The notes under the pieces are model-generated. The model saw only the letters and a list, made by a program, of their open reading frames with translations, made no database searches and was not told the DNA's origin. A program made the translations under genes and the position numbers. This document shows, one piece after another, positions 1-9,360 of a stretch of DNA of 64,000 bases. This stretch comes from a bacterium (GTDB lineage Bacteria > Hinthialibacterota > Hinthialibacteria > Hinthialibacterales > Hinthialibacteraceae). The stretch lies in assembly GCA_963662285.2 (NCBI GenBank), contig CAXXMV010000002.1, positions 288,001-352,000 of the forward strand, read 5' to 3'. The first letter of the stretch is position 1. Each line of letters begins with the position of its first letter.

Positions 1-835
1 GGTAATGAGATTGGCATCGACTTTCTGTGGCTGCAGAAATAGCGGTGGATTGTTGCGAATGATTTTTAAAAGCACTTGATTTTTGATGGAGCGCGGTGTT
101 ATCATTACTGTAATTTTAGATATCTTGTGAATGCTATTTTGGGTGGTTCGGGAGTTTTTGTTTAAGGTAAGATTGTTTCATAAAGTGAAATAATTAAGCG
201 TACTATGGTTGATTTTCCTCACTAGTCGAGATGATTTTCGATAATATTGTTTTGTGTATATTTCCCGAAAAGGAGATTATTCCACTTTGAATTAAATAAT
301 CCGATAGTTAGACTATATTTTGTGTTTTAACATAAGGCGTATAAATATATTCTGCATAAGTGATTGTAATTCAATACTTTTTTAGCAGTATTTAATTATT
401 TTTCCTTTGACTAAAGGATATTTAACATTTTTCGTAGTTGTGATAATGATGATTGGAATCAGATCAAAAAGCAAAATAGGTCATTGATTTTTTTAGGAAT
501 ATATGGTTCAATGTTTTGTAGTTATGCAGATTAACATAAAACAAATGCTCTAAGGTTTGGAATTTTTATAAATTATTAATTTGAATTCGGTTGCGGTTGA
601 GGGAAGTTTTTGAAATCAGCTAAGCATTGCATCTCGTGGAGAAAATTGAATTTTTCTTCTGCTAGGATTGATTGGTATATCATAGCAGCAAGCGAAGTTG
701 CTCGATTATAGTATGAGCCTTTTCGATAATGAATTCCTTTCTCCCGCCGCATTCCATATCGGGATCCAAATCAGGTTTTCCGTGAAAAGCGGTCGTACGA
801 TTTGGGATGGTAAAGGATAAGGGAGAAAACCACCG

Positions 836-1639
836 ATGAATCAAGTGGCTGCACCTACAAATACAACGGCGATGATATTAGAAACTGCCAAAAAAGAAGA
901 CAAGGGTTTCATTCATCCTTCAGTGTGCATTGATCCAAGCGTACAACTTGGAGAAGGCGTGATATTGCACGCGAATGTAGTCATTGAACGAGCTGTACGT
1001 ATTGGCGCCAATGCAGAGATTCATGTTGGTTGTTATATTGGAGAAGATTGCGTAATAGGTGAGAATACTGTTTTGTATACGTCAGTAACCTTGCGTGAAA
1101 AGACCAGGATTGGCGCACGGGTAAAGATTGCTGCGGGAGCGGTTATAGGCAGCGATGGTTTCGGGTATGTGAAGCAGGAAGATGGCGTTAATTTTAAGGT
1201 TCCCCAAGTTGGTTATGTAATTATAGAGGATGATGTTTGCATTGGTTCAAACACAACAATTGATAGAGCTACGTTAGGTAAAACGACTATAAGCAAAGGC
1301 GCTATAATCGGAAATCTGGTTCAAGTCGGTCATAATGTATGCGTCGGTGAGAATTCGAGGATTGGAGACAGCGTCGGTGTTTGCGGGAGTTGTAAGATAG
1401 GGAGTCATGTTTCAATCGGGCAAGGCGTAGGCATGGTTGGTCATATTCGTATTGGCGATCATGCGGAAGTGGCGAGCGGTTCAGGCATCAGCAAAGATGT
1501 TGCGGATGGCGTGAAGATGCAAGGCGTACCTGCAATGGATGAAGAGACCTATGAAAAGTTTTATTCATACCTGTCAAAAATGCCGGAATTCGTTTCCCGC
1601 CTTAAGGATATAGAAGACAAAATTAAGTCTAAAGGATAG
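836..1639 (+). CDS. lpxD: LpxD-like hexapeptide-repeat acyltransferase lacking the N-terminal uridine-binding domain
   Basis: Hexapeptide repeats; [31 protein letters not shown] and QVGHN motifs; SD AAGGGAG upstream. Confidence 0.75.
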
Positions 1640-1853
1640 GTTTTTATTATTATTAGATTTTTTTATGAAACCTGAAAAAGAATTTATTCATAACTTATTT
1701 TTTGCTTCCTTCCGCTTTATCTCTTTAAACCTTTACAATATCTATATAAAAGGCTTTATTCAAATTTACTAACAATAAATCGAATTATGATTAGATTTCA
1801 GATAGATTATCAGTTTTACCTTTAATTAAAAAATATTTCACTAGAGGAGTATT

Positions 1854-2993
1854 ATGGTTCAGGAACGTATTGTAACGTCAGAATCCGTAACGGAAGGACA
1901 TCCAGACAAAATCGCAGATCAGATATCAGATGGAATTCTGGATGCTATCTATGAACAAGACCCGAATGGCCGCGTCGCCTGTGAAACTTTGGTGACGACA
2001 GGTTTGATCCTAATCGCAGGAGAAATAACTACTACTGCCAATATTGAATATTCGAAAATCGCTCGTTCTGTGGTAAATGATATTGGTTATAACAATGCTG
2101 ATTATGGCTTCGATTGCAATACCTGCGCTGTAATGGTTACGCTTGACCGCCAGTCGCCTGATATCTCGCAAGGCGTTGATGAAGGCGAAGGGCACGAACA
2201 AGGCGCTGGCGATCAGGGTATGATGTATGGCTATGCGACCAATGAAAATGATTCTTATATGCCAATGCCAATTACTTTGGCGCATAAATTGACCATGCGT
2301 TTATCTGAAGTGCGTAAATCCGGCGTCTTGCCTTGGGTTCGCTCGGATGGAAAATCGCAAGTCAGCGTTGTTTATGAGGATGGCAAAGTCAAACAAGTTG
2401 ATGCGGTTGTAATTTCAACGCAACATGCTCCGGAAATTTCTCAACAAGAGATTACCGATTCGATTACTGAAGAAGTTATCAAAAAAATCATTCCAGAAAA
2501 TCTTATGCATAGCGGAACCAAGCTGCATATTAATCCAACCGGGCGTTTTGTGGTTGGCGGCCCGATGGGCGACTGTGGTTTGACTGGCCGTAAGATTATC
2601 GTTGATACATATGGCGGCGTTGGACGTCATGGCGGGGGCGCTTTCTCAGGTAAAGATCCATCCAAAGTAGACCGTAGCGCTGCTTATGCTGCGCGTCATG
2701 TTGCTAAGAATGTAGTTGCAGCAGGTTTGGCTGATCGTTGTGAAGTTCAATTGGCCTATGCCATTGGCGTGGCTAATCCGGTGTCGATTGACGTGGATAC
2801 TTTTGGCACGGCCAAAATTCCGGAAGAGCAGATTTCTCAGAAAGTTAAAGATGTTTTCGACCTGCGTCCTTCAGCCATTATCCAGCGCTTGGATCTGCGT
2901 CGCCCGATTTATCGCGCAACGGCTGCTTATGGTCATTTCGGTCGTCCCGAATTCCCGTGGGAAAAATTGGATTATGTTGATAAACTAAAATAA
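1854..2993 (+). CDS. metK: S-adenosylmethionine synthetase
   Basis: [18 protein letters not shown] and [16 protein letters not shown] signatures. Confidence 0.98.
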
Positions 2994-3041
2994 TGGATTC
3001 ATTTATGTTTTTGATGAATCTATCAAATTGATACTATTATT

Positions 3042-3070
3042 ACAAAGCCCCTGCTCAGGGGCTTTGTTTG
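3042..3070 (+). terminator. Intrinsic terminator after metK
   Basis: CAAAGCCCCTG-CT-CAGGGGCTTTG inverted repeat followed by T-rich sequence. Confidence 0.75.
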
Positions 3071-3218
3071 TATTGAAAATCAGGGAATTTTTGTCTGGAT
3101 TACTTGCATAATATTTTTATATACGAAATTTCTACATCTACGTTATTTGATTCAACGACTCCTTTATTGAATTAAATGCAATAAGAGATAACCTTTTAAT
3201 ATAATCAAAGGTGAGGCT

Positions 3219-3944
3219 ATGCGTCTCCAGGAACTTGGTAAGAGAATTCGTACGCAACGTGAAAAGTTAGGACTGAAACAGATTGATCTGGCGCATGCGC
3301 TCCAAGTCAGTCCTCAAGCGGTCTCTAAATGGGAGCGTGCGGAAAATGGACCGGATATAACCATTCTTGGTGAACTAGCTAAATTGCTGGGCGTTTCAAC
3401 CGATTGGCTGTTGGGGCTTCATGCCGAAGATAAAGAAGTATTTGAAGCGACTGTTTTTGCCTCCAGTATTAGAGGCGCCTATAAAAAATCCCGGAAAATG
3501 GAACCGGGTGGTTTTGCGTTGTGGGCTAATGGCTTATTTTTTTCTATTACGGAATCTGTTTTGCGATTTGATGCAGTGCCCATCAAATGTATGGGAGATC
3601 AGTTTCTATGCTTTTTTTCCGGTTCAATGCATCAGGAACGGGCAATTCAAGCCACCCGTTTAACCAAAGAAATGATCGCTGAAGATTTGATAGTGGGATT
3701 GAGCTGCGGAGAGATTTTTCTCGGTTCAGTGGGACATCCTGATTATGCTCATCCAGACATTATGGGAGAAATAGTAAATCTTGCTTTTCTAACCATGGGA
3801 TGGGCTGAAACCAATACGCAAACGCATGTCGCTGTTACCAAGGATGTTATCAGCAGTATTGAGGATGTAGAAATAGGCGAAACGGAATCAGCCATATTCA
3901 AAGGCATTGAAAGTTCTGTTGAAGTGTGTGAGCTTTTGTTCTAG
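3219..3944 (+). CDS. XRE/Cro-C1 HTH protein fused to a degenerate class III nucleotidyl-cyclase-like domain
   Basis: N-terminal LKQIDLA..VSPQAVSKWE..P..LAKLLGVSTDWLL HTH; C-terminal ATVFASSIRG, PIKCMGDQFLCFF and PDIMGEIVNLA resemble cyclase motifs. Confidence 0.8.
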   Translation: MRLQELGKRIRTQREKLGLKQIDLAHALQVSPQAVSKWERAENGPDITILGELAKLLGVSTDWLLGLHAEDKEVFEATVFASSIRGAYKKSRKMEPGGFALWANGLFFSITESVLRFDAVPIKCMGDQFLCFFSGSMHQERAIQATRLTKEMIAEDLIVGLSCGEIFLGSVGHPDYAHPDIMGEIVNLAFLTMGWAETNTQTHVAVTKDVISSIEDVEIGETESAIFKGIESSVEVCELLF

Positions 3945-4005
3945 AAATATTCCATAAATTTGATTACAAAATTATATTAATTAACTTATGAAAGAGGTAA
4001 ATGTA

Positions 4006-5466
4006 ATGAGTCAAGATGCAAAGAAAACAGGGATTGATTTATCCACGATTAAATTACCCGATTATTCAGGTCTACCATATAAGGTTGCTGATTTGGAACT
4101 GGCTGATTTCGGGCGTAGAGAATTAGATATTGCTGAAGAAGAAATGCCGGGTTTGGTGTCATCGAGAAAAAAATATGGCGTTGAGAAGCCTTTATCCGGG
4201 GCGCGGATTACGGGTTCGCTCCACATGACCATTCAAACGGCTGTTTTGATTGAAACATTGAAAGAACTGGGCGCTGATGTTCGCTGGGCGACATGCAATA
4301 TCTTCTCAACTCAGGATCACGCCGCTGCGGCGATTGCCAAAACTGGAACGCCGGTATACGCCTGGAAAGGTGAATCGCTGGAAGACTATTGGGAATGCAC
4401 CTTGCAAGCGCTGTCTTTTCCCGGTGGGAAAGGGCCTGAGATGATAGTCGATGATGGCGGCGATGCTACGTTGCTGATTCACCGGGGATATCAGGCTGAA
4501 GAGGATTCTTCTATTCTGGATGTACCTACCGATGTACGTGAACTAGCTATAATCAACGCTCTTCTGAAACGTGAATTGCAGAAGAATCCTAATCGCTGGC
4601 ATGATGTTGTTAAAGAAATGCGCGGCGTGTCGGAAGAAACCACTACCGGCGTTCATCGTCTCTATGAGATGATGGAGAACAAGAAACTTCTCTTCCCTGC
4701 TATTAATGTTAATGATTCGGTTACTAAATCGAAATTTGATAACCTATATGGATGCCGTGAATCTCTGGCTGATGGAATTAAAAGAGCCACAGATGTCATG
4801 GTTGCGGGCAAGATTGTCTGCGTATGCGGTTATGGAGATGTCGGTAAGGGCTGCGCTCAGTCAATGCGTGGATTCGGCGCCCGTGTCTTGGTTACCGAAA
4901 TTGATCCGATATGCGCTCTGCAAGCCGCAATGGAAGGTTTTGAAGTTACTACTTTGGAAGATGCGCTTAGCGAAGCCAATATTTTCGTCACCACTACCGG
5001 CAACTGCGATATCATCCGAGTCGAGCATATGGAGAAGATGCTGGATCAGGCCATTGTCTGCAACATCGGTCACTTTGATAATGAAATCCAGGTTGATAAG
5101 CTGAATAATTATCCCGGCATAAAAATGTTGACTATCAAACCTCAGGTGGATAAATATACTTTCCCGACGGGGAATTCCATCTTCATGCTGGCGGAAGGCC
5201 GTCTGGTAAACCTTGGTTGCGCTACGGGGCATCCATCATTCGTTATGTCTAACTCATTCACCAATCAGGTATTAGCGCAGATCGATCTATGGAAAGATCC
5301 CAAAGAGATCGGCGTTTACCGTTTATCCAAGAAATTGGATGAAGAAGTCGCCCGTCTACACCTGGCGAAATTGGGCGTTAAAATGACGAAATTAACCCAG
5401 GCTCAGGCCGATTATATCGGAGTCCCGGTTGAAGGTCCCTACAAGCCAGAGCATTACCGGTATTAA
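4006..5466 (+). CDS. ahcY: Adenosylhomocysteinase (start at MSQD, after SD GAGGT)
   Basis: [38 protein letters not shown] and GHPSFVMS motifs. Confidence 0.98.
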
Positions 5467-5499
5467 TTTTGTTGCGGAATAGATAATTGAGTGATTATC

Positions 5500-5533
5500 A
5501 AGGGGCTGCGCTTAACCGTGCAGCCTCTTTTTT
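5500..5533 (+). terminator. Intrinsic terminator after ahcY
   Basis: AAGGGGCTGCGC...GTGCAGCCTCTT stem followed by a T run. Confidence 0.65.
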
Positions 5534-6288
5534 GTTGGATCAGTGAAGGTGCATGGGACGCCGACCAGGCATTTTCCGCATACGTCCGTGGTTCCGAATT
5601 GCGTCAATCGCGCATTGTTATCAAGGCACATTTCATGACAGCGGAAGCGGTCGAATTGCATATCAGTGAAGGCGTGGTTGACGCATCTCTCCATACATTT
5701 TTTACATGACTGGTCGAATTTATAGAGACAATGTTCATGATCCGGCCTGGATGACGGGCTGATCTCTGCGGTTGTTATCATGCTACCCAGTCTTCCACCG
5801 CACCCTTCTTCTGTGATCAACATATTATTCATGCCGAAAGTTCCTAGGCCAGAGATATAGGCGATATGTCTATGTGACCAGTCGCTGATCAACTTTTCCT
5901 CATCAAAATTATGGGTTGCCGGAATGACCTTTGATTGATGGCCGTGTTGGAGCATAAAATTATTCAGATGGTTGCTTAAATCCATAATTAACTGATTCGT
6001 AATAATATACGATTCGGCCCATAGGTCAGAGCAATCCTTATTTTTGATATTGCTACTGGTAATTTCTTTAATAAATGGAATAAAGAATGCGATAACGGTT
6101 TTTGCGTTTTGCAGAAGGTCATTTGGATGAGCATGGGATGGAGAGACTACGGTTTTCAATTCATTGAAGAGTGGATCGTTGGCATCGGCGTAGCCGACTA
6201 ATGGAGTTCTCCAATAATTTTCTATTCCATTTTGTATGGAGTAATTACTAATATATTTTTGAATTTCTTCGGTTATTAATGTCTTCAT
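5512..6288 (-). CDS. Epoxyqueuosine reductase-like 4Fe-4S protein
   Basis: WSHRHIAYISGLGTFG, GRLGSMIT and two Cys clusters (CKKCMERC; CGKC...C). Confidence 0.75.
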   Translation of the reverse strand: MKTLITEEIQKYISNYSIQNGIENYWRTPLVGYADANDPLFNELKTVVSPSHAHPNDLLQNAKTVIAFFIPFIKEITSSNIKNKDCSDLWAESYIITNQLIMDLSNHLNNFMLQHGHQSKVIPATHNFDEEKLISDWSHRHIAYISGLGTFGMNNMLITEEGCGGRLGSMITTAEISPSSRPDHEHCLYKFDQSCKKCMERCVNHAFTDMQFDRFRCHEMCLDNNARLTQFGTTDVCGKCLVGVPCTFTDPTKKRLHG

Positions 6289-6405
6289 GGTTATAGATTC
6301 ATATTAGATTATTAATTTTCACATAGTTTATCTTTTAAGAAGAGAAAGTTGAACCTATAGATAGAACTGAATTACCTCTCTGCACTTGATTTTATAAGGT
6401 AGTCT

Positions 6406-7677
6406 ATGTCATTGTTTAGGCGTCTTTTAATTTGCATTCAAGATAATAATTCCAATGGAGGAAGATTCTCGATGAATATTAAAAAAATAGTATTTCGAAT
6501 GAAATATCGAATATTAGCAGCTCTAACTGTTTGTTGTTTTTCATCTACGGTAATTGCCGAGAGTCCGGCGGGAATGCTGGATAGCCTCTCGAAGAAACGG
6601 GACGCCGTTACCAAGCGCATTTCCAGCTTCGACCAGACGGGCGGCAATAGCGATAGGATTGGCATCGAACCGGGCGCCACGGCGGTTATCGCTCAAATTG
6701 ATAAGCCCGGCATCATTAAACATATCTGGATGACAATAGCTCATTCAGATAAAAACTACCGCCGTATGATGGTTTTACGCATGTACTGGGATGATGAAAA
6801 AGAACCGAGCGTCGAAGCGCCGATAGGCGACTTTTTTGGTCAGGGATGGGGAGAAGAGTATCTCTATAATACGCTGCCATTGGCTGCTGGACCTACCAAT
6901 GGCCGTGGATTGAACTGTTATTTTCCTATGCCTTTTTCCAAACGGGCGCGGATCGAAGTCGTTAATCAATCAGAGAAAAAATGCAACTCGCTCTATTTTT
7001 ATATTGATTATGAGGAACATAAAAAAATATCGAAGGATCAATTACGCTTTCATGCCTGGTATAATCAGGAACTTACTGAACCAATGAAAGGCGATGAGAA
7101 CGAATGGAACGCTCTGCGCAGCCCGGCTGATGAGAATCCTACTGATGAAGATAATTACCTGATAATCGACGCTGAGGGCGAGGGGCATTATGTCGGCGTG
7201 AATTATTACGTCAGTTGCCCTTCTCCGATGTGGTATGGCGAGGGCGATGATATGTGGAATATTGATGGCGAGAAATGGCCCTTTTCGCTGCATGGAACAG
7301 GGACGGAGGATTATTTCAATTCATCCTGGTGTCCCAAGGAAGTATTTATGCATCCATTTTTCGGGTATCCCCGCGTGAATCATCAAGAGGGATGGATGGG
7401 GCGGACTCACTGTTACCGCTTCCATATTCAAGAACCCATTATATTCAAGAAATCATTACGCGGCTCCATAGAACATGGCCATGCCAATAGCATGACTGAA
7501 GAAATCGCCACGGTGGCTTATTGGTATCAGAAAGAACCGCATAAAACGTTTCCTGCTCTGGCGGCAGCAAAGGACCGGCTGCCCCGTTCAGGGATTGGCG
7601 TTTCTGAGATTCATCGCTGGAGAGACGCCTGGAGAGAAAAACAAGGCGGAGGCGTTTTGTGGGGGAATGAGCGGTAA
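6406..7677 (+). CDS. DUF2961 / GH172 family secreted glycoside hydrolase (true start probably downstream)
   Basis: SSFDQTGGNSD, PGIIKHIWMT, CYFPMPF, WYGEGDD and GTGTEDYF motifs; signal-peptide-like stretch. Confidence 0.85.
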   Translation: MSLFRRLLICIQDNNSNGGRFSMNIKKIVFRMKYRILAALTVCCFSSTVIAESPAGMLDSLSKKRDAVTKRISSFDQTGGNSDRIGIEPGATAVIAQIDKPGIIKHIWMTIAHSDKNYRRMMVLRMYWDDEKEPSVEAPIGDFFGQGWGEEYLYNTLPLAAGPTNGRGLNCYFPMPFSKRARIEVVNQSEKKCNSLYFYIDYEEHKKISKDQLRFHAWYNQELTEPMKGDENEWNALRSPADENPTDEDNYLIIDAEGEGHYVGVNYYVSCPSPMWYGEGDDMWNIDGEKWPFSLHGTGTEDYFNSSWCPKEVFMHPFFGYPRVNHQEGWMGRTHCYRFHIQEPIIFKKSLRGSIEHGHANSMTEEIATVAYWYQKEPHKTFPALAAAKDRLPRSGIGVSEIHRWRDAWREKQGGGVLWGNER

Positions 7678-7701
7678 AACATTATCGGATTTGGTTTCAT
7701 T

Positions 7702-7886
7702 GTTGCATTGTTACATAAAAATAGAGAGTAAATAATGAATAGGGATTAGCGTAAGTGATTGTTTTTATGTTGTTTAAGGCATGGCCTGATTATTAAGTAT
7801 TGGATAAATCAATTGCTGAGTTACATAACCGTTACATAAGATGTACGCTCTAATGAACAAATACTATGCGTTAGAGCGTACATCTT
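7702..7886. repeat. Repeat array 3' of the AlbA_2 gene: GTTACATAA direct repeats and a 16-bp inverted repeat
   Basis: GTTACATAACCGTTACATAA at 7820-7839; GTTGCATTGTTACATAA at 7702-7718; AAGATGTACGCTCTAA (7838-7853) / TTAGAGCGTACATCTT (7871-7886). Confidence 0.75.
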
Positions 7887-7896
7887 TTAATATCTC

Positions 7897-9360
7897 TTAA
7901 GCCCAAAAGGGCACGTATTTTGAGTGTTTCTTTGATGTGTTATCTGGATCGTGAGGTTTGATGAGATTTGCTTTTATTGTTTCCGCTATAATTCTTGAGG
8001 CCATAGGGTAGTTGTTGGATTTAATGGAAAAACGTTCTCTAAGGGAAGTATTAGTCATTTGTTCATTTGAAACGTATTTTAAGACAGCGTGTTGGTAGCA
8101 TGCTCTTATTTTCTCTTTTTTATCCATTTGACAAACTTTTTTATAAGCGAAAAGAATTACTTTTGTGTTCTGCTCTGTAACAATAAATTCGGGAGCAGGT
8201 AATTGATAGAATTCTACTTCAGAGATTACTTTGTCTATTCCGCTTCCTCTTTCCTCACAAATATTAATACGCCTCATGAATGAAGCCAGTGATTCGTTTC
8301 TTGATTGGGGCGGCTCATCAATGAAGCGTAACGTGTCTATTAAAGGTGTGCCCGGATTTGTGAATTCTATTCGATCATCGAATATTTCAACAATTGGTCC
8401 TGTTCCATTGATAGTGAAATCCTGATGAATTAAAGCATTTGCGAGGAGTTCCCGAATTGCAATTTCTGGATACATTCGTTCACTTTTCCGCAATGCTTTC
8501 TCAATAATTTCGTTCTGAGGTAATAAATTATTAATGAAATTAATGGCTCCTTCAAATCCTATCGCATAACCATATTTTCCTATTTGTTCCCGGATTGTCT
8601 TTACGCGGTTTTTACCATTATATACAATTACGCGTATTGCTTTTCGTCTTAATGCGTCAATTTGATCAATATCTTTGGCAAATAAAATTCCTCCCAAACA
8701 AGTGATGTCATAATATCCTCCCTCTTTTTCATTTATTAAGTTTTCGGATTTGAGTTTTCCTAATATTCCATTACTGTTTTCAGGAAGAGGCTGGTTTGTT
8801 AAATCGAAATATGTGGGATAATCGATGTATTTAAGGACTTCATCTTTCGATATATTCTTAATAGTAATTTGTTTCTCATATGGTTCTTTATCGAATATTT
8901 TCCATAATGCGCGTTCTTTTTCTGGGAAATCTTGCAGTTTTCGTTTATAACTACCACACCGGATGTATTCAATACCTATGAAAGAAACTGGTTGATGTAT
9001 TGCACGTGGTATTTCAAAAACAACTATATGAAATTTCTTAAATGTAGTATCAATAATTTTAAAATCTATACGAGGTTGAATTCTATTAGATAACCAATTT
9101 TCTAATTCTTCTTGTCCTATCTTATATACACTTGGCTTAAAAGATGTACCAACAATTTCTTTGGACTTATCATCAATACCCCAGATAAGATAACCTTTGT
9201 CTTTTCCACAAAGAGAAGCCGAATTTGATAAAGCCGAAATATATTCTCCAATCTGGTTGTGCTCGGCCTTATTCCTCTTAAACTCAATCCACTCATTCTC
9301 TTTCTGAAGTCCAATAAATTCAGTTAATAATCTATTTATGTATTCGTTTTCTATATTCAT
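7897..9360 (-). CDS. Schlafen/AlbA_2 + HATPase_c_4 + winged-helix protein (paralog 1)
   Basis: ENEWIEFK and LIWGIDD (AlbA_2); YPEIAIRELLANALIHQD, RNESLA and CEERGSG (HATPase_c_4); C-terminal wHTH ending YVPFWA; AT-rich. Confidence 0.85.
   Translation of the reverse strand: MNIENEYINRLLTEFIGLQKENEWIEFKRNKAEHNQIGEYISALSNSASLCGKDKGYLIWGIDDKSKEIVGTSFKPSVYKIGQEELENWLSNRIQPRIDFKIIDTTFKKFHIVVFEIPRAIHQPVSFIGIEYIRCGSYKRKLQDFPEKERALWKIFDKEPYEKQITIKNISKDEVLKYIDYPTYFDLTNQPLPENSNGILGKLKSENLINEKEGGYYDITCLGGILFAKDIDQIDALRRKAIRVIVYNGKNRVKTIREQIGKYGYAIGFEGAINFINNLLPQNEIIEKALRKSERMYPEIAIRELLANALIHQDFTINGTGPIVEIFDDRIEFTNPGTPLIDTLRFIDEPPQSRNESLASFMRRINICEERGSGIDKVISEVEFYQLPAPEFIVTEQNTKVILFAYKKVCQMDKKEKIRACYQHAVLKYVSNEQMTNTSLRERFSIKSNNYPMASRIIAETIKANLIKPHDPDNTSKKHSKYVPFWA

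Follow-up and report, generated by a model that had tools for sequence, protein, structure and literature searches.

The window, by which we mean the whole 64,000-nucleotide stretch of DNA that was analyzed, carries metK, a gene for a small regulator and ahcY in this order on the forward strand (Table 1). Both neighbors of the regulator had been named as metK and ahcY in an earlier note made from the sequence, and Pfam agrees with both identities; the same note had placed a terminator between metK and the regulator gene, and a hairpin is indeed found there. Translation of ahcY more likely begins at the ATG at 4006, which is preceded by a conserved ribosome-binding site (GAAAGAGG), than at 3988, and the gap between the regulator and ahcY accordingly measures 43–61 nt, depending on which start is used. 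Because of this gap, the simplest reading of the layout is that the regulator and ahcY are probably co-transcribed as a two-gene operon; no terminator-like site was found between them (3944–3988). Convergent with ahcY on the reverse strand lies an ORF of 258 aa that is rich in cysteine (5512–6288) and matches no Pfam family at E ≤ 1.

Table 1. Features of the metK–regulator–ahcY region, in positions of the window.
Feature	Position	Strand	Remarks
metK (SAM synthetase)	1854–2993	+	Pfam S-AdoMet_synt N, M and C domains, E 1e-42 to 9e-73; upstream neighbor, context only
Intrinsic terminator of metK	3042–3067	+	12-bp stem and T tail; between metK and the regulator operon
Weak distal element copy, CTAC-N9-ATTT	3132–3148	+	21 bp 5' of the main site; kept in part in four relatives (alignment); putative binding site
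17-bp element CAACGACTCCTTTATTG, predicted operator	3153–3169	+	Core of the inverted repeat 3145–3177; conserved across loci
Predicted sigma-70-type promoter	3167–3194	+	−35 TTGAAT (3167–3172), 16-bp spacer, −10 TAACCT (3189–3194)
Regulator gene, 241 aa	3219–3944	+	XRE HTH, residues 10–64 (nt 3246–3410); cyclase-homology domain, residues 74–239 (nt 3438–3935)
Ser83 codon; Leu191 codon	3465–3467; 3789–3791	+	Within the regulator gene
ahcY (SAH hydrolase)	3988–5466	+	Pfam AdoHcyase, E 3e-146
Terminator 3' of ahcY	5500–5529	+	End of the predicted two-gene operon

Domain Architecture and Fold of the Regulator

The product of the ORF at 3219–3944 is an XRE helix-turn-helix (HTH) fused to a true class III cyclase-homology domain, as the earlier note had proposed. 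Its N-terminal domain matches HTH_3 in Pfam (E 3.4e-16; 59.4 bits against a cut-off of 23) and is of the P22 c2/434-like kind, being closest to the c2 repressor of phage P22 (E 2.9e-17) and to Xre of ICEBs1. All 20 matches to phage-repressor and antitoxin models of NCBIfam remain below the cut-offs of those models (the best, RstR, at 48.6 against 80), and the regulator has no match to an ArsR or methyltransferase domain in Pfam at E ≤ 1. Taken as a single sequence, the C-terminal domain falls just under the Pfam cut-off for Guanylate_cyc (residues 76–219; E 1.1e-3; 19.1 bits against 21.9), a threshold that some relatives pass unaided (L025, 39.6 bits). Although this single-sequence score is subthreshold, the fold assignment is settled by family profiles, one built from 32 full-length relatives and the other from 23 C-terminal domains, both of which match class III cyclases. 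Against the PDB, the profile of C-terminal domains found Cya2 (2w01, E 6e-15) and CyaB (3r5g, E 3.9e-13), and OaPAC, CyaC and Rv1625c were also matched by the family profiles among solved class III cyclases. A structure prediction, which the earlier note had suggested as a check, leads to the same place: the AF2 model of the regulator is confident (pLDDT 94.2, pTM 0.85), and a Foldseek search with it returned cyclase catalytic domains only (Cya2, CyaC and CyaB; E 7e-12 to 1e-10, target TM 0.72–0.77).

Two copies of residues 68–241, modeled with SAH included but unscored, gave a dimer score of 0.91 (best control 0.00), and the mark applied to this score is one reached by 20 of 30 solved homodimers and by 1 of 23 single chains. 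Three runs agree in at least 97% of contacts, with a partner pLDDT of at least 91. As cyclase dimers have already been solved, we read this pass as showing the likeness of the model to known cyclase dimers. The modeled interface takes in the neighborhood of K123–D127 as well as D180, N187 and L191, and six residues that are invariant in the family (N104, T111, P121, G172, H173 and G183) also lie in it.

Catalytic and Base-Recognition Residues

In class III cyclases, the roles of the metal-binding aspartates, of the Lys/Asp pair that recognizes the base and of the Asn-Arg pair at the transition state are textbook knowledge. A homodimeric enzyme of this class requires both metal aspartates and the Asn-Arg pair in every chain, and substitutions at the positions discussed here abolish activity in the class III enzymes that have been studied. 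When the regulator is aligned with 2w01 and 3r5g by HMMER, the Asp of the S-D-(I/L)-R-G-F strand, the first metal Asp, is replaced by Ser83, and the Arg of the V-N-L-A-x-R motif is replaced by Leu191. K123 and D127 align with the Lys and the second metal Asp of the K-x-x-G-D motif, and N187 is kept at the Asn position of the transition-state pair. D180 occupies the base-specifying position, which is Thr in CyaB and Gly in the guanylate cyclase Cya2, so that K123 and D180 stand beside the specificity pairs K/T (CyaB) and E/G (Cya2).

Counted over the 50 locus-derived relatives and database proteins of 200–330 aa, the family signature at these positions is S/T/G, K, D, D, N, L/I, the first position being S, T, G or A in nearly all relatives. 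The commonest signature, SKDDNLK, is the window's own and occurs in 43 proteins, and the fully canonical DKDDNRK was seen in only 2 aligned database proteins. The last letter denotes the Lys of an FKG motif (K228), which is kept in the commonest signatures and in many members and is variable across the family. By these alignments, the residues that hold adenine and ribose are conserved and two residues that handle the metal-triphosphate and the transition state are gone, family-wide. Since the first metal Asp and the transition-state Arg are absent, the cyclase-homology domain is predicted to be unable to cyclize nucleotides. The residue states read by eye in the earlier note (Ser for the first metal Asp, no catalytic Arg, and Lys, base Asp, second metal Asp and Asn kept) are thus those of the alignments throughout the family, and its description of a pseudo-cyclase that lacks two catalytic residues and retains those for adenine and ribose recognition applies to the family as a whole.

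A Conserved Element in the Predicted Promoter of the Regulator

The regulator's own predicted promoter contains an imperfectly symmetric sequence, CAAY-N9-RTTG, which is the predicted operator. In its strict form, CAAC-N9-ATTG, it is found 65–108 nt 5' of the start codon and in one orientation at 24 of 24 loci whose regulators are at least 53% identical, and at 3 of 26 more distant loci; a 200-nt upstream stretch would hold one strict match by chance with a probability of about 0.3%. The element is common to upstream sequences that are otherwise unrelated and of very different GC content, as exemplified by the copy in the window and by those at L004 (CAACGAATGCGTCATTG) and L005 (CAACCGCCCCGCCATTG). 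The earlier note had put forward two inverted repeats upstream of the regulator as operators, 3145–3155/3167–3177 (91% complementary) and 3191–3201/3202–3212 (82% complementary). An inverted repeat alone is not beyond chance in AT-rich DNA. The first repeat is nevertheless validated by the conservation of its core across phyla, the 17-bp element being kept in all close homologues; the second overlaps the predicted −10 and was rejected as an operator, as it is not conserved as a repeat in the alignment of relatives.

Of 26 distinct sites, 25 have a TAnnnT hexamer at a distance of 16–18 bp downstream of the TTG, against 8.5% at shifted control offsets. Because of this spacing, the TTG is read as the predicted −35 of a sigma-70-type promoter, which would center the element near −41. 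If so, part of the element's conservation is promoter conservation, because the TTG doubles as a −35 box, and the CAAC, the A before the TTG and the second copies 21 bp upstream are beyond what such a box would explain. Four Latescibacterota loci (L001–L003/L075) have tandem copies 21 bp apart, in which CAAC and ATTG are kept and the spacer varies, and a weaker copy is found at the same distance in the window and its four nearest relatives. In the Syntrophorhabdales-type group, a true palindrome, TCAAC-N5-GTTGA, precedes by 21 bp the sequence xAAC-N9-GTTG, which stands at the −35. In CAAC-N9-ATTG, a conserved C at position 10, within the spacer, breaks the dyad symmetry, and the half-sites are 13 bp apart from center to center, which is unusual for a simple HTH dimer. 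At one relative's locus (L107 of genome G010), an identical 17-mer (CAACCAGGGCGTCATTG) is duplicated with its flanks (60–130 and 585–650) at a distance of 526 bp, and a 108-aa ORF for a HigA-like HTH_3 protein lies between the two copies, an arrangement that looks like an insertion that copied the promoter.

Distribution and Gene Neighborhoods of the Family

The family is large and compact. At E ≤ 1e-3 it comprises 946 clusters, the best 120 of which are all 240–316 aa long and 55–93% identical, and 45 representatives of a 50%-identity library reach E ≤ 1e-30; a metagenome scan with a 9-sequence alignment gave only 12 loci. In the window's genome the regulator is single-copy. Gene neighborhoods were compared over 51 rows, namely the window and 50 loci with at least 150 aligned residues, drawn from several searches, of which the genome search listed 80 of about 550 matches. 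Within this set, ahcY is the next gene downstream, in the same orientation, in 24 of the 51 rows; two of them, L008 and L099, come from the same genome, which leaves 23 of 50 distinct rows linked to ahcY. The linked rows belong to Latescibacterota, Hydrogenedentota, metagenome-assembled genomes (MAGs) labeled Nitrospiraceae, unclassified MAGs and the window's phylum. Within the window's own clade of a maximum-likelihood tree (support 97/93), linkage to ahcY holds for 23 of the 29 rows, and one further linked row, L087, falls in the sister clade. Conservation of the neighborhood, which the earlier note had suggested as a check, thus extends across phyla as far as ahcY is concerned, and adjacency to metK is confined to the window's own family.

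An adjoining ahcY is missing from 27 of the 51 rows. Their neighbors include an adenosine deaminase gene at L013, where the element lies directly upstream, MetE genes downstream (L031) or upstream (L027) of the regulator, a thrC-like PLP enzyme (L012, L030) and purA with purM (L015), contexts that would fit a role in SAH turnover or one-carbon metabolism, as would the neighbors of the Syntrophorhabdales-type group described below. At ten further loci (L016–L020, L022, L023, L028, L032 and L033), the neighbors offer no obvious clue of this kind. The two Latescibacterota genomes with the thrC-like neighbor have a single copy of the regulator, and their ahcY lies elsewhere with no element upstream. 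Because of these unlinked rows and of the two genomes with a separate ahcY, linkage to ahcY is to be taken as characteristic of one clade and not of the family at large.

Among the 35 genomes of the window's phylum, ahcY is present in 22 and the regulator in 6. At each of the six ahcY loci that have the regulator, the element is present and correctly placed, and none of the 16 loci that lack the regulator has the element upstream of ahcY; single copies occur inside the ahcY reading frame at L114 and, in reverse, inside ahcY at L110. We give these figures as counts and apply no statistical test, as kin are not independent. The regulator and the element are thus gained and lost as a single cassette between metK and ahcY, which speaks for an element tied to the regulator and against one that serves ahcY expression at large.

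Targets and Other Control Systems

The earlier note had also extended control to metK, and this is not supported here. The region upstream of metK (1640–1853) holds no copy of CAAC-N9-ATTG, the adjacency of metK is peculiar to the window's family as described above, and metK directly abuts ahcY in 8 of the 16 loci without the regulator; metK was therefore rejected as a target. A position-weight scan of the window's genome (7.29 Mb) gave 1678 pattern matches, with the regulator's own promoter at the top (22.9 bits), but this site is itself part of the matrix. The next 44 matches include 38 inside ORFs of at least 110 aa; of the other six, five have no gene properly placed downstream, and one (C6 618722) is only 16 bp before an ORF start. 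As no second convincing target emerged from this whole-genome scan, the regulon looks local and may consist of one operon.

In three Latescibacterota chromosomes (G035–G037), the pattern TCAACN5CN3ATTG occurs 23–38 times per genome, against 2–5 times for a backwards control, an excess that is probably an effect of codon usage. Eight match regions from these genomes comprise five inside ORFs, one with no gene downstream, one some 216 bp 5' of an amylase-like gene and a single cleanly intergenic site. The last (TCAACTACGTCTGGATTG, at L157:1069–1086 in G037 and at G036:C1:2480593–2480610) lies 64 nt 5' of a gene for an ABC-transporter ATPase, about 3 kb from the thrC-like-linked regulator in both of these Latescibacterota genomes, and the transporter gene may be a second target there.

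Other known means of controlling the methyl cycle were sought as well. The earlier note had seen neither MetJ nor a SAM riboswitch; in agreement with it, the SAM-I riboswitch and MetJ were not found anywhere in the window's genome by searches that did detect their controls, and no Rfam family matched positions 1–8000 of the window at E ≤ 1.

Proposed Mechanism

We favor, with somewhat better than even confidence, the reading that the protein is a one-component regulator of the regulator–ahcY operon, acting through CAAC-N9-ATTG and equipped with a dead cyclase pocket that senses an adenosyl compound. In the mechanism that we infer, from recognition of the element and identity of the ligand to the sign of regulation and co-transcription with ahcY, the XRE HTH would bind CAAC-N9-ATTG where it overlaps the −35 of its own promoter, centered near −41, with the two HTH heads held by a head-to-tail dimer of the cyclase type. 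The weaker copy 21 bp upstream (−62) would probably be bound cooperatively. The pocket at the interface, which keeps the residues that recognize adenine and ribose, would bind a non-phosphorylated adenosyl metabolite, most likely SAH, and ligand binding would alter the affinity for DNA and so set the transcription of the operon.

XRE sensor regulators are mostly repressors, and a site at −41 is typical of class II activators. The element, at about −41 relative to the predicted promoter, would suit either kind of regulator. Between a class II-type activator and a repressor that SAH releases, we lean modestly toward the latter, given the prevalence of repressors among XRE sensor regulators and the example of SahR, which works in this way.

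The AhcY reaction is reversible, and the removal of SAH needs the functions of ahcY, adenosine deaminase and MetE. SAH would be the favored ligand, both because the residues for adenine and ribose are kept and those that handle the triphosphate are lost, and because these three functions combined would pull the AhcY reaction in the direction of hydrolysis. A nucleotide would also be compatible with the retention of D127 and, in many members, of K228. The same factor and operator could therefore serve a different effector (adenosine, SAM, MTA, ATP/ADP or cAMP) and report purine or energy status, a reading that we consider unlikely, if still worth keeping in mind. K123, D180 and N187 specify the adenine and ribose parts only, while the nearly invariant D127 and the K228 of the commonest signatures would suit a ligand that bears phosphate or metal, and the contexts with purine genes (adenosine deaminase at L013, purA/purM at L015) point the same way. 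Yet the Arg and the first metal Asp, which would hold the triphosphate and the metal, are lost family-wide and K228 is variable; the dominant neighbor is ahcY, and the MetE neighbors likewise indicate the methyl cycle. Induction of ahcY, adenosine deaminase and MetE together would be most simply explained by SAH.

The proposed SAH sensor might also be no sensor at all. Were the cyclase-like domain a ligand-free scaffold for dimerization, the protein would be a constitutive autoregulator that holds the operon at a fixed level, and the strong dimer model would suit this, as would the six invariant residues in the modeled interface, whose conservation could be structural. We think this improbable, as K123, D180 and N187 have no known role in dimerization and are kept across phyla while the catalytic residues drift, and as persistent linkage to one metabolic gene suggests the sensing of a metabolite. 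Still more doubtful is a DNA-tethered adenylate or guanylate cyclase of an unusual kind that remains active: the fold is complete, with the second metal Asp, Asn187 and the base-specifying pair in place, and some relatives bear the name 'class 3 adenylate cyclase' from their source pipeline, but Ser83 and Leu191 replace two required residues, and nearly all relatives are changed likewise. Finally, we give next to no credence to an XRE repressor of the mobile-element or antitoxin type whose place near ahcY is accidental, for, despite an HTH most like those of P22 c2 and ICEBs1 Xre, a patchy presence in the phylum (6 of 35 genomes) and a HigA-like gene inserted beside the regulator in one relative, all NCBIfam phage and antitoxin models score far under their cut-offs, the regulator's neighbors in the window are metK and ahcY with no toxin or phage gene beside it, and the recurrence of the same gene order across phyla largely refutes this reading.

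Returning to the SAH-sensing regulator, a broader proposal can be framed, which we advance tentatively and hold at somewhat less than an even chance. It states that a class III cyclase domain has been turned into an SAH receptor, the first instance of this fold as the sensor of a transcription factor, and that the result is a convergent, non-homologous counterpart of SahR for SAH clearance in Latescibacterota, Hydrogenedentota, Planctomycetota-related and other mostly uncultured phyla, with relatives retargeted to MetE, adenosine deaminase and folate or thymidylate genes.

Comparison with Known Systems

To our knowledge, control of the methyl cycle has been described only for SahR, MetJ/MetR and SAM/SAH riboswitches. 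SahR combines an ArsR HTH with a methyltransferase-like domain, whereas the regulator described here, with its XRE HTH and cyclase fold, is an unrelated protein. In Alpha-, Delta- and some Gammaproteobacteria, SahR represses SAM-cycle genes in response to SAH, with a core regulon of sahR, ahcY, metH, metF and metK (Leyn et al., 2014, PMC4239095). SahR is encoded with ahcY and regulates it, is autoregulated through a palindromic site and has SAH as its effector, all of which we propose for the present regulator; its operator is a 20-bp palindrome and its core regulon, in other phyla, spans several genes, in contrast to the predicted 17-bp CAAC-N9-ATTG and the apparently single operon here (PMC4239095).

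The class III cyclases CyaB (3r5g), Cya2 (2w01) and CyaC (1wc1) share with the regulator the fold, the head-to-tail dimer (as modeled) and the positions of the Lys, the second metal Asp, the base Asp and the Asn. The regulator family departs from them by having Ser, Thr or Gly for the first metal Asp and Leu or Ile for the transition-state Arg, by a GHPDY loop and a TE motif of its own, and by a fused DNA-binding domain in place of any signaling input domain. Dead cyclase sites of the palm fold are known to have been reused as ligand receptors, as in degenerate GGDEF domains and in the pseudo-symmetric site of mammalian adenylyl cyclase and soluble guanylyl cyclase. Those receptors act on enzymes or signaling proteins, whereas here both sites of a homodimer would be dead and the proposed output is DNA binding. 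With XRE-cupin regulators such as PsdR and PuuR, the regulator shares an N-terminal XRE HTH and a C-terminal sensing and dimerizing domain as well as, by our proposal, local control of an adjoining metabolic gene, often with autoregulation; the sensor is a cupin in the former and a cyclase fold in the latter.

A search of the literature found no description of a family of XRE-cyclase regulators or of such a regulator of ahcY. A term search of PMC12565409 gave no mention of the family in the text that it covered, and the Protein Atlas returned only unnamed XRE clusters. The regulator would be of the one-component, metabolite-sensing type, with a fold that has so far not been described as the sensor of such proteins. 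What is new here is the predicted operator, its position in the predicted promoter, the way in which regulator and element occur together like a cassette, and how far the link to ahcY reaches, with no site at metK, other gene contexts and a regulon that looks local. If the proposal is true, it would fill a gap in the control of the activated methyl cycle in many mostly uncultured phyla and add the class III cyclase fold to the sensor domains of one-component regulators, and a compact switch responsive to SAH or adenosine would be a useful biosensor part. It also bears on annotation, as source pipelines now name relatives plainly 'XRE regulator' or 'class 3 adenylate cyclase'. With a predicted operator and promoter and a short list of ligands, the hypothesis is directly testable.

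Observations at Related Loci

Several features of related loci deserve record. At L008 (5903–7293; the genome of L099 and L122), ahcY is matched in two pieces with a break at residue 310/312, which may be a frameshift or an assembly error, and the spacer between the regulator and ahcY at this locus contains a long GC-rich inverted repeat. A shorter AhcY, lacking query residues of about 162–199 (an insertion segment), is encoded at L162–L165 (G036, G037) and at L117–L121, and none of these genes is linked to the regulator. In relatives of the Syntrophorhabdales/Syntrophus type, an ORF of 122–135 aa with no Pfam or NCBIfam family always lies 3' of the regulator, sometimes overlapping it (L021:5781–6149, L024:5761–6129, L025:5774–6175, L026:5710–6114, L027:5710–6117 and L029:5744–6112). 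This ORF may encode a conserved partner of the regulator or be its target, and it is followed by a gene for ThyX, a methyl-THF:corrinoid methyltransferase-like gene or one for QueF.
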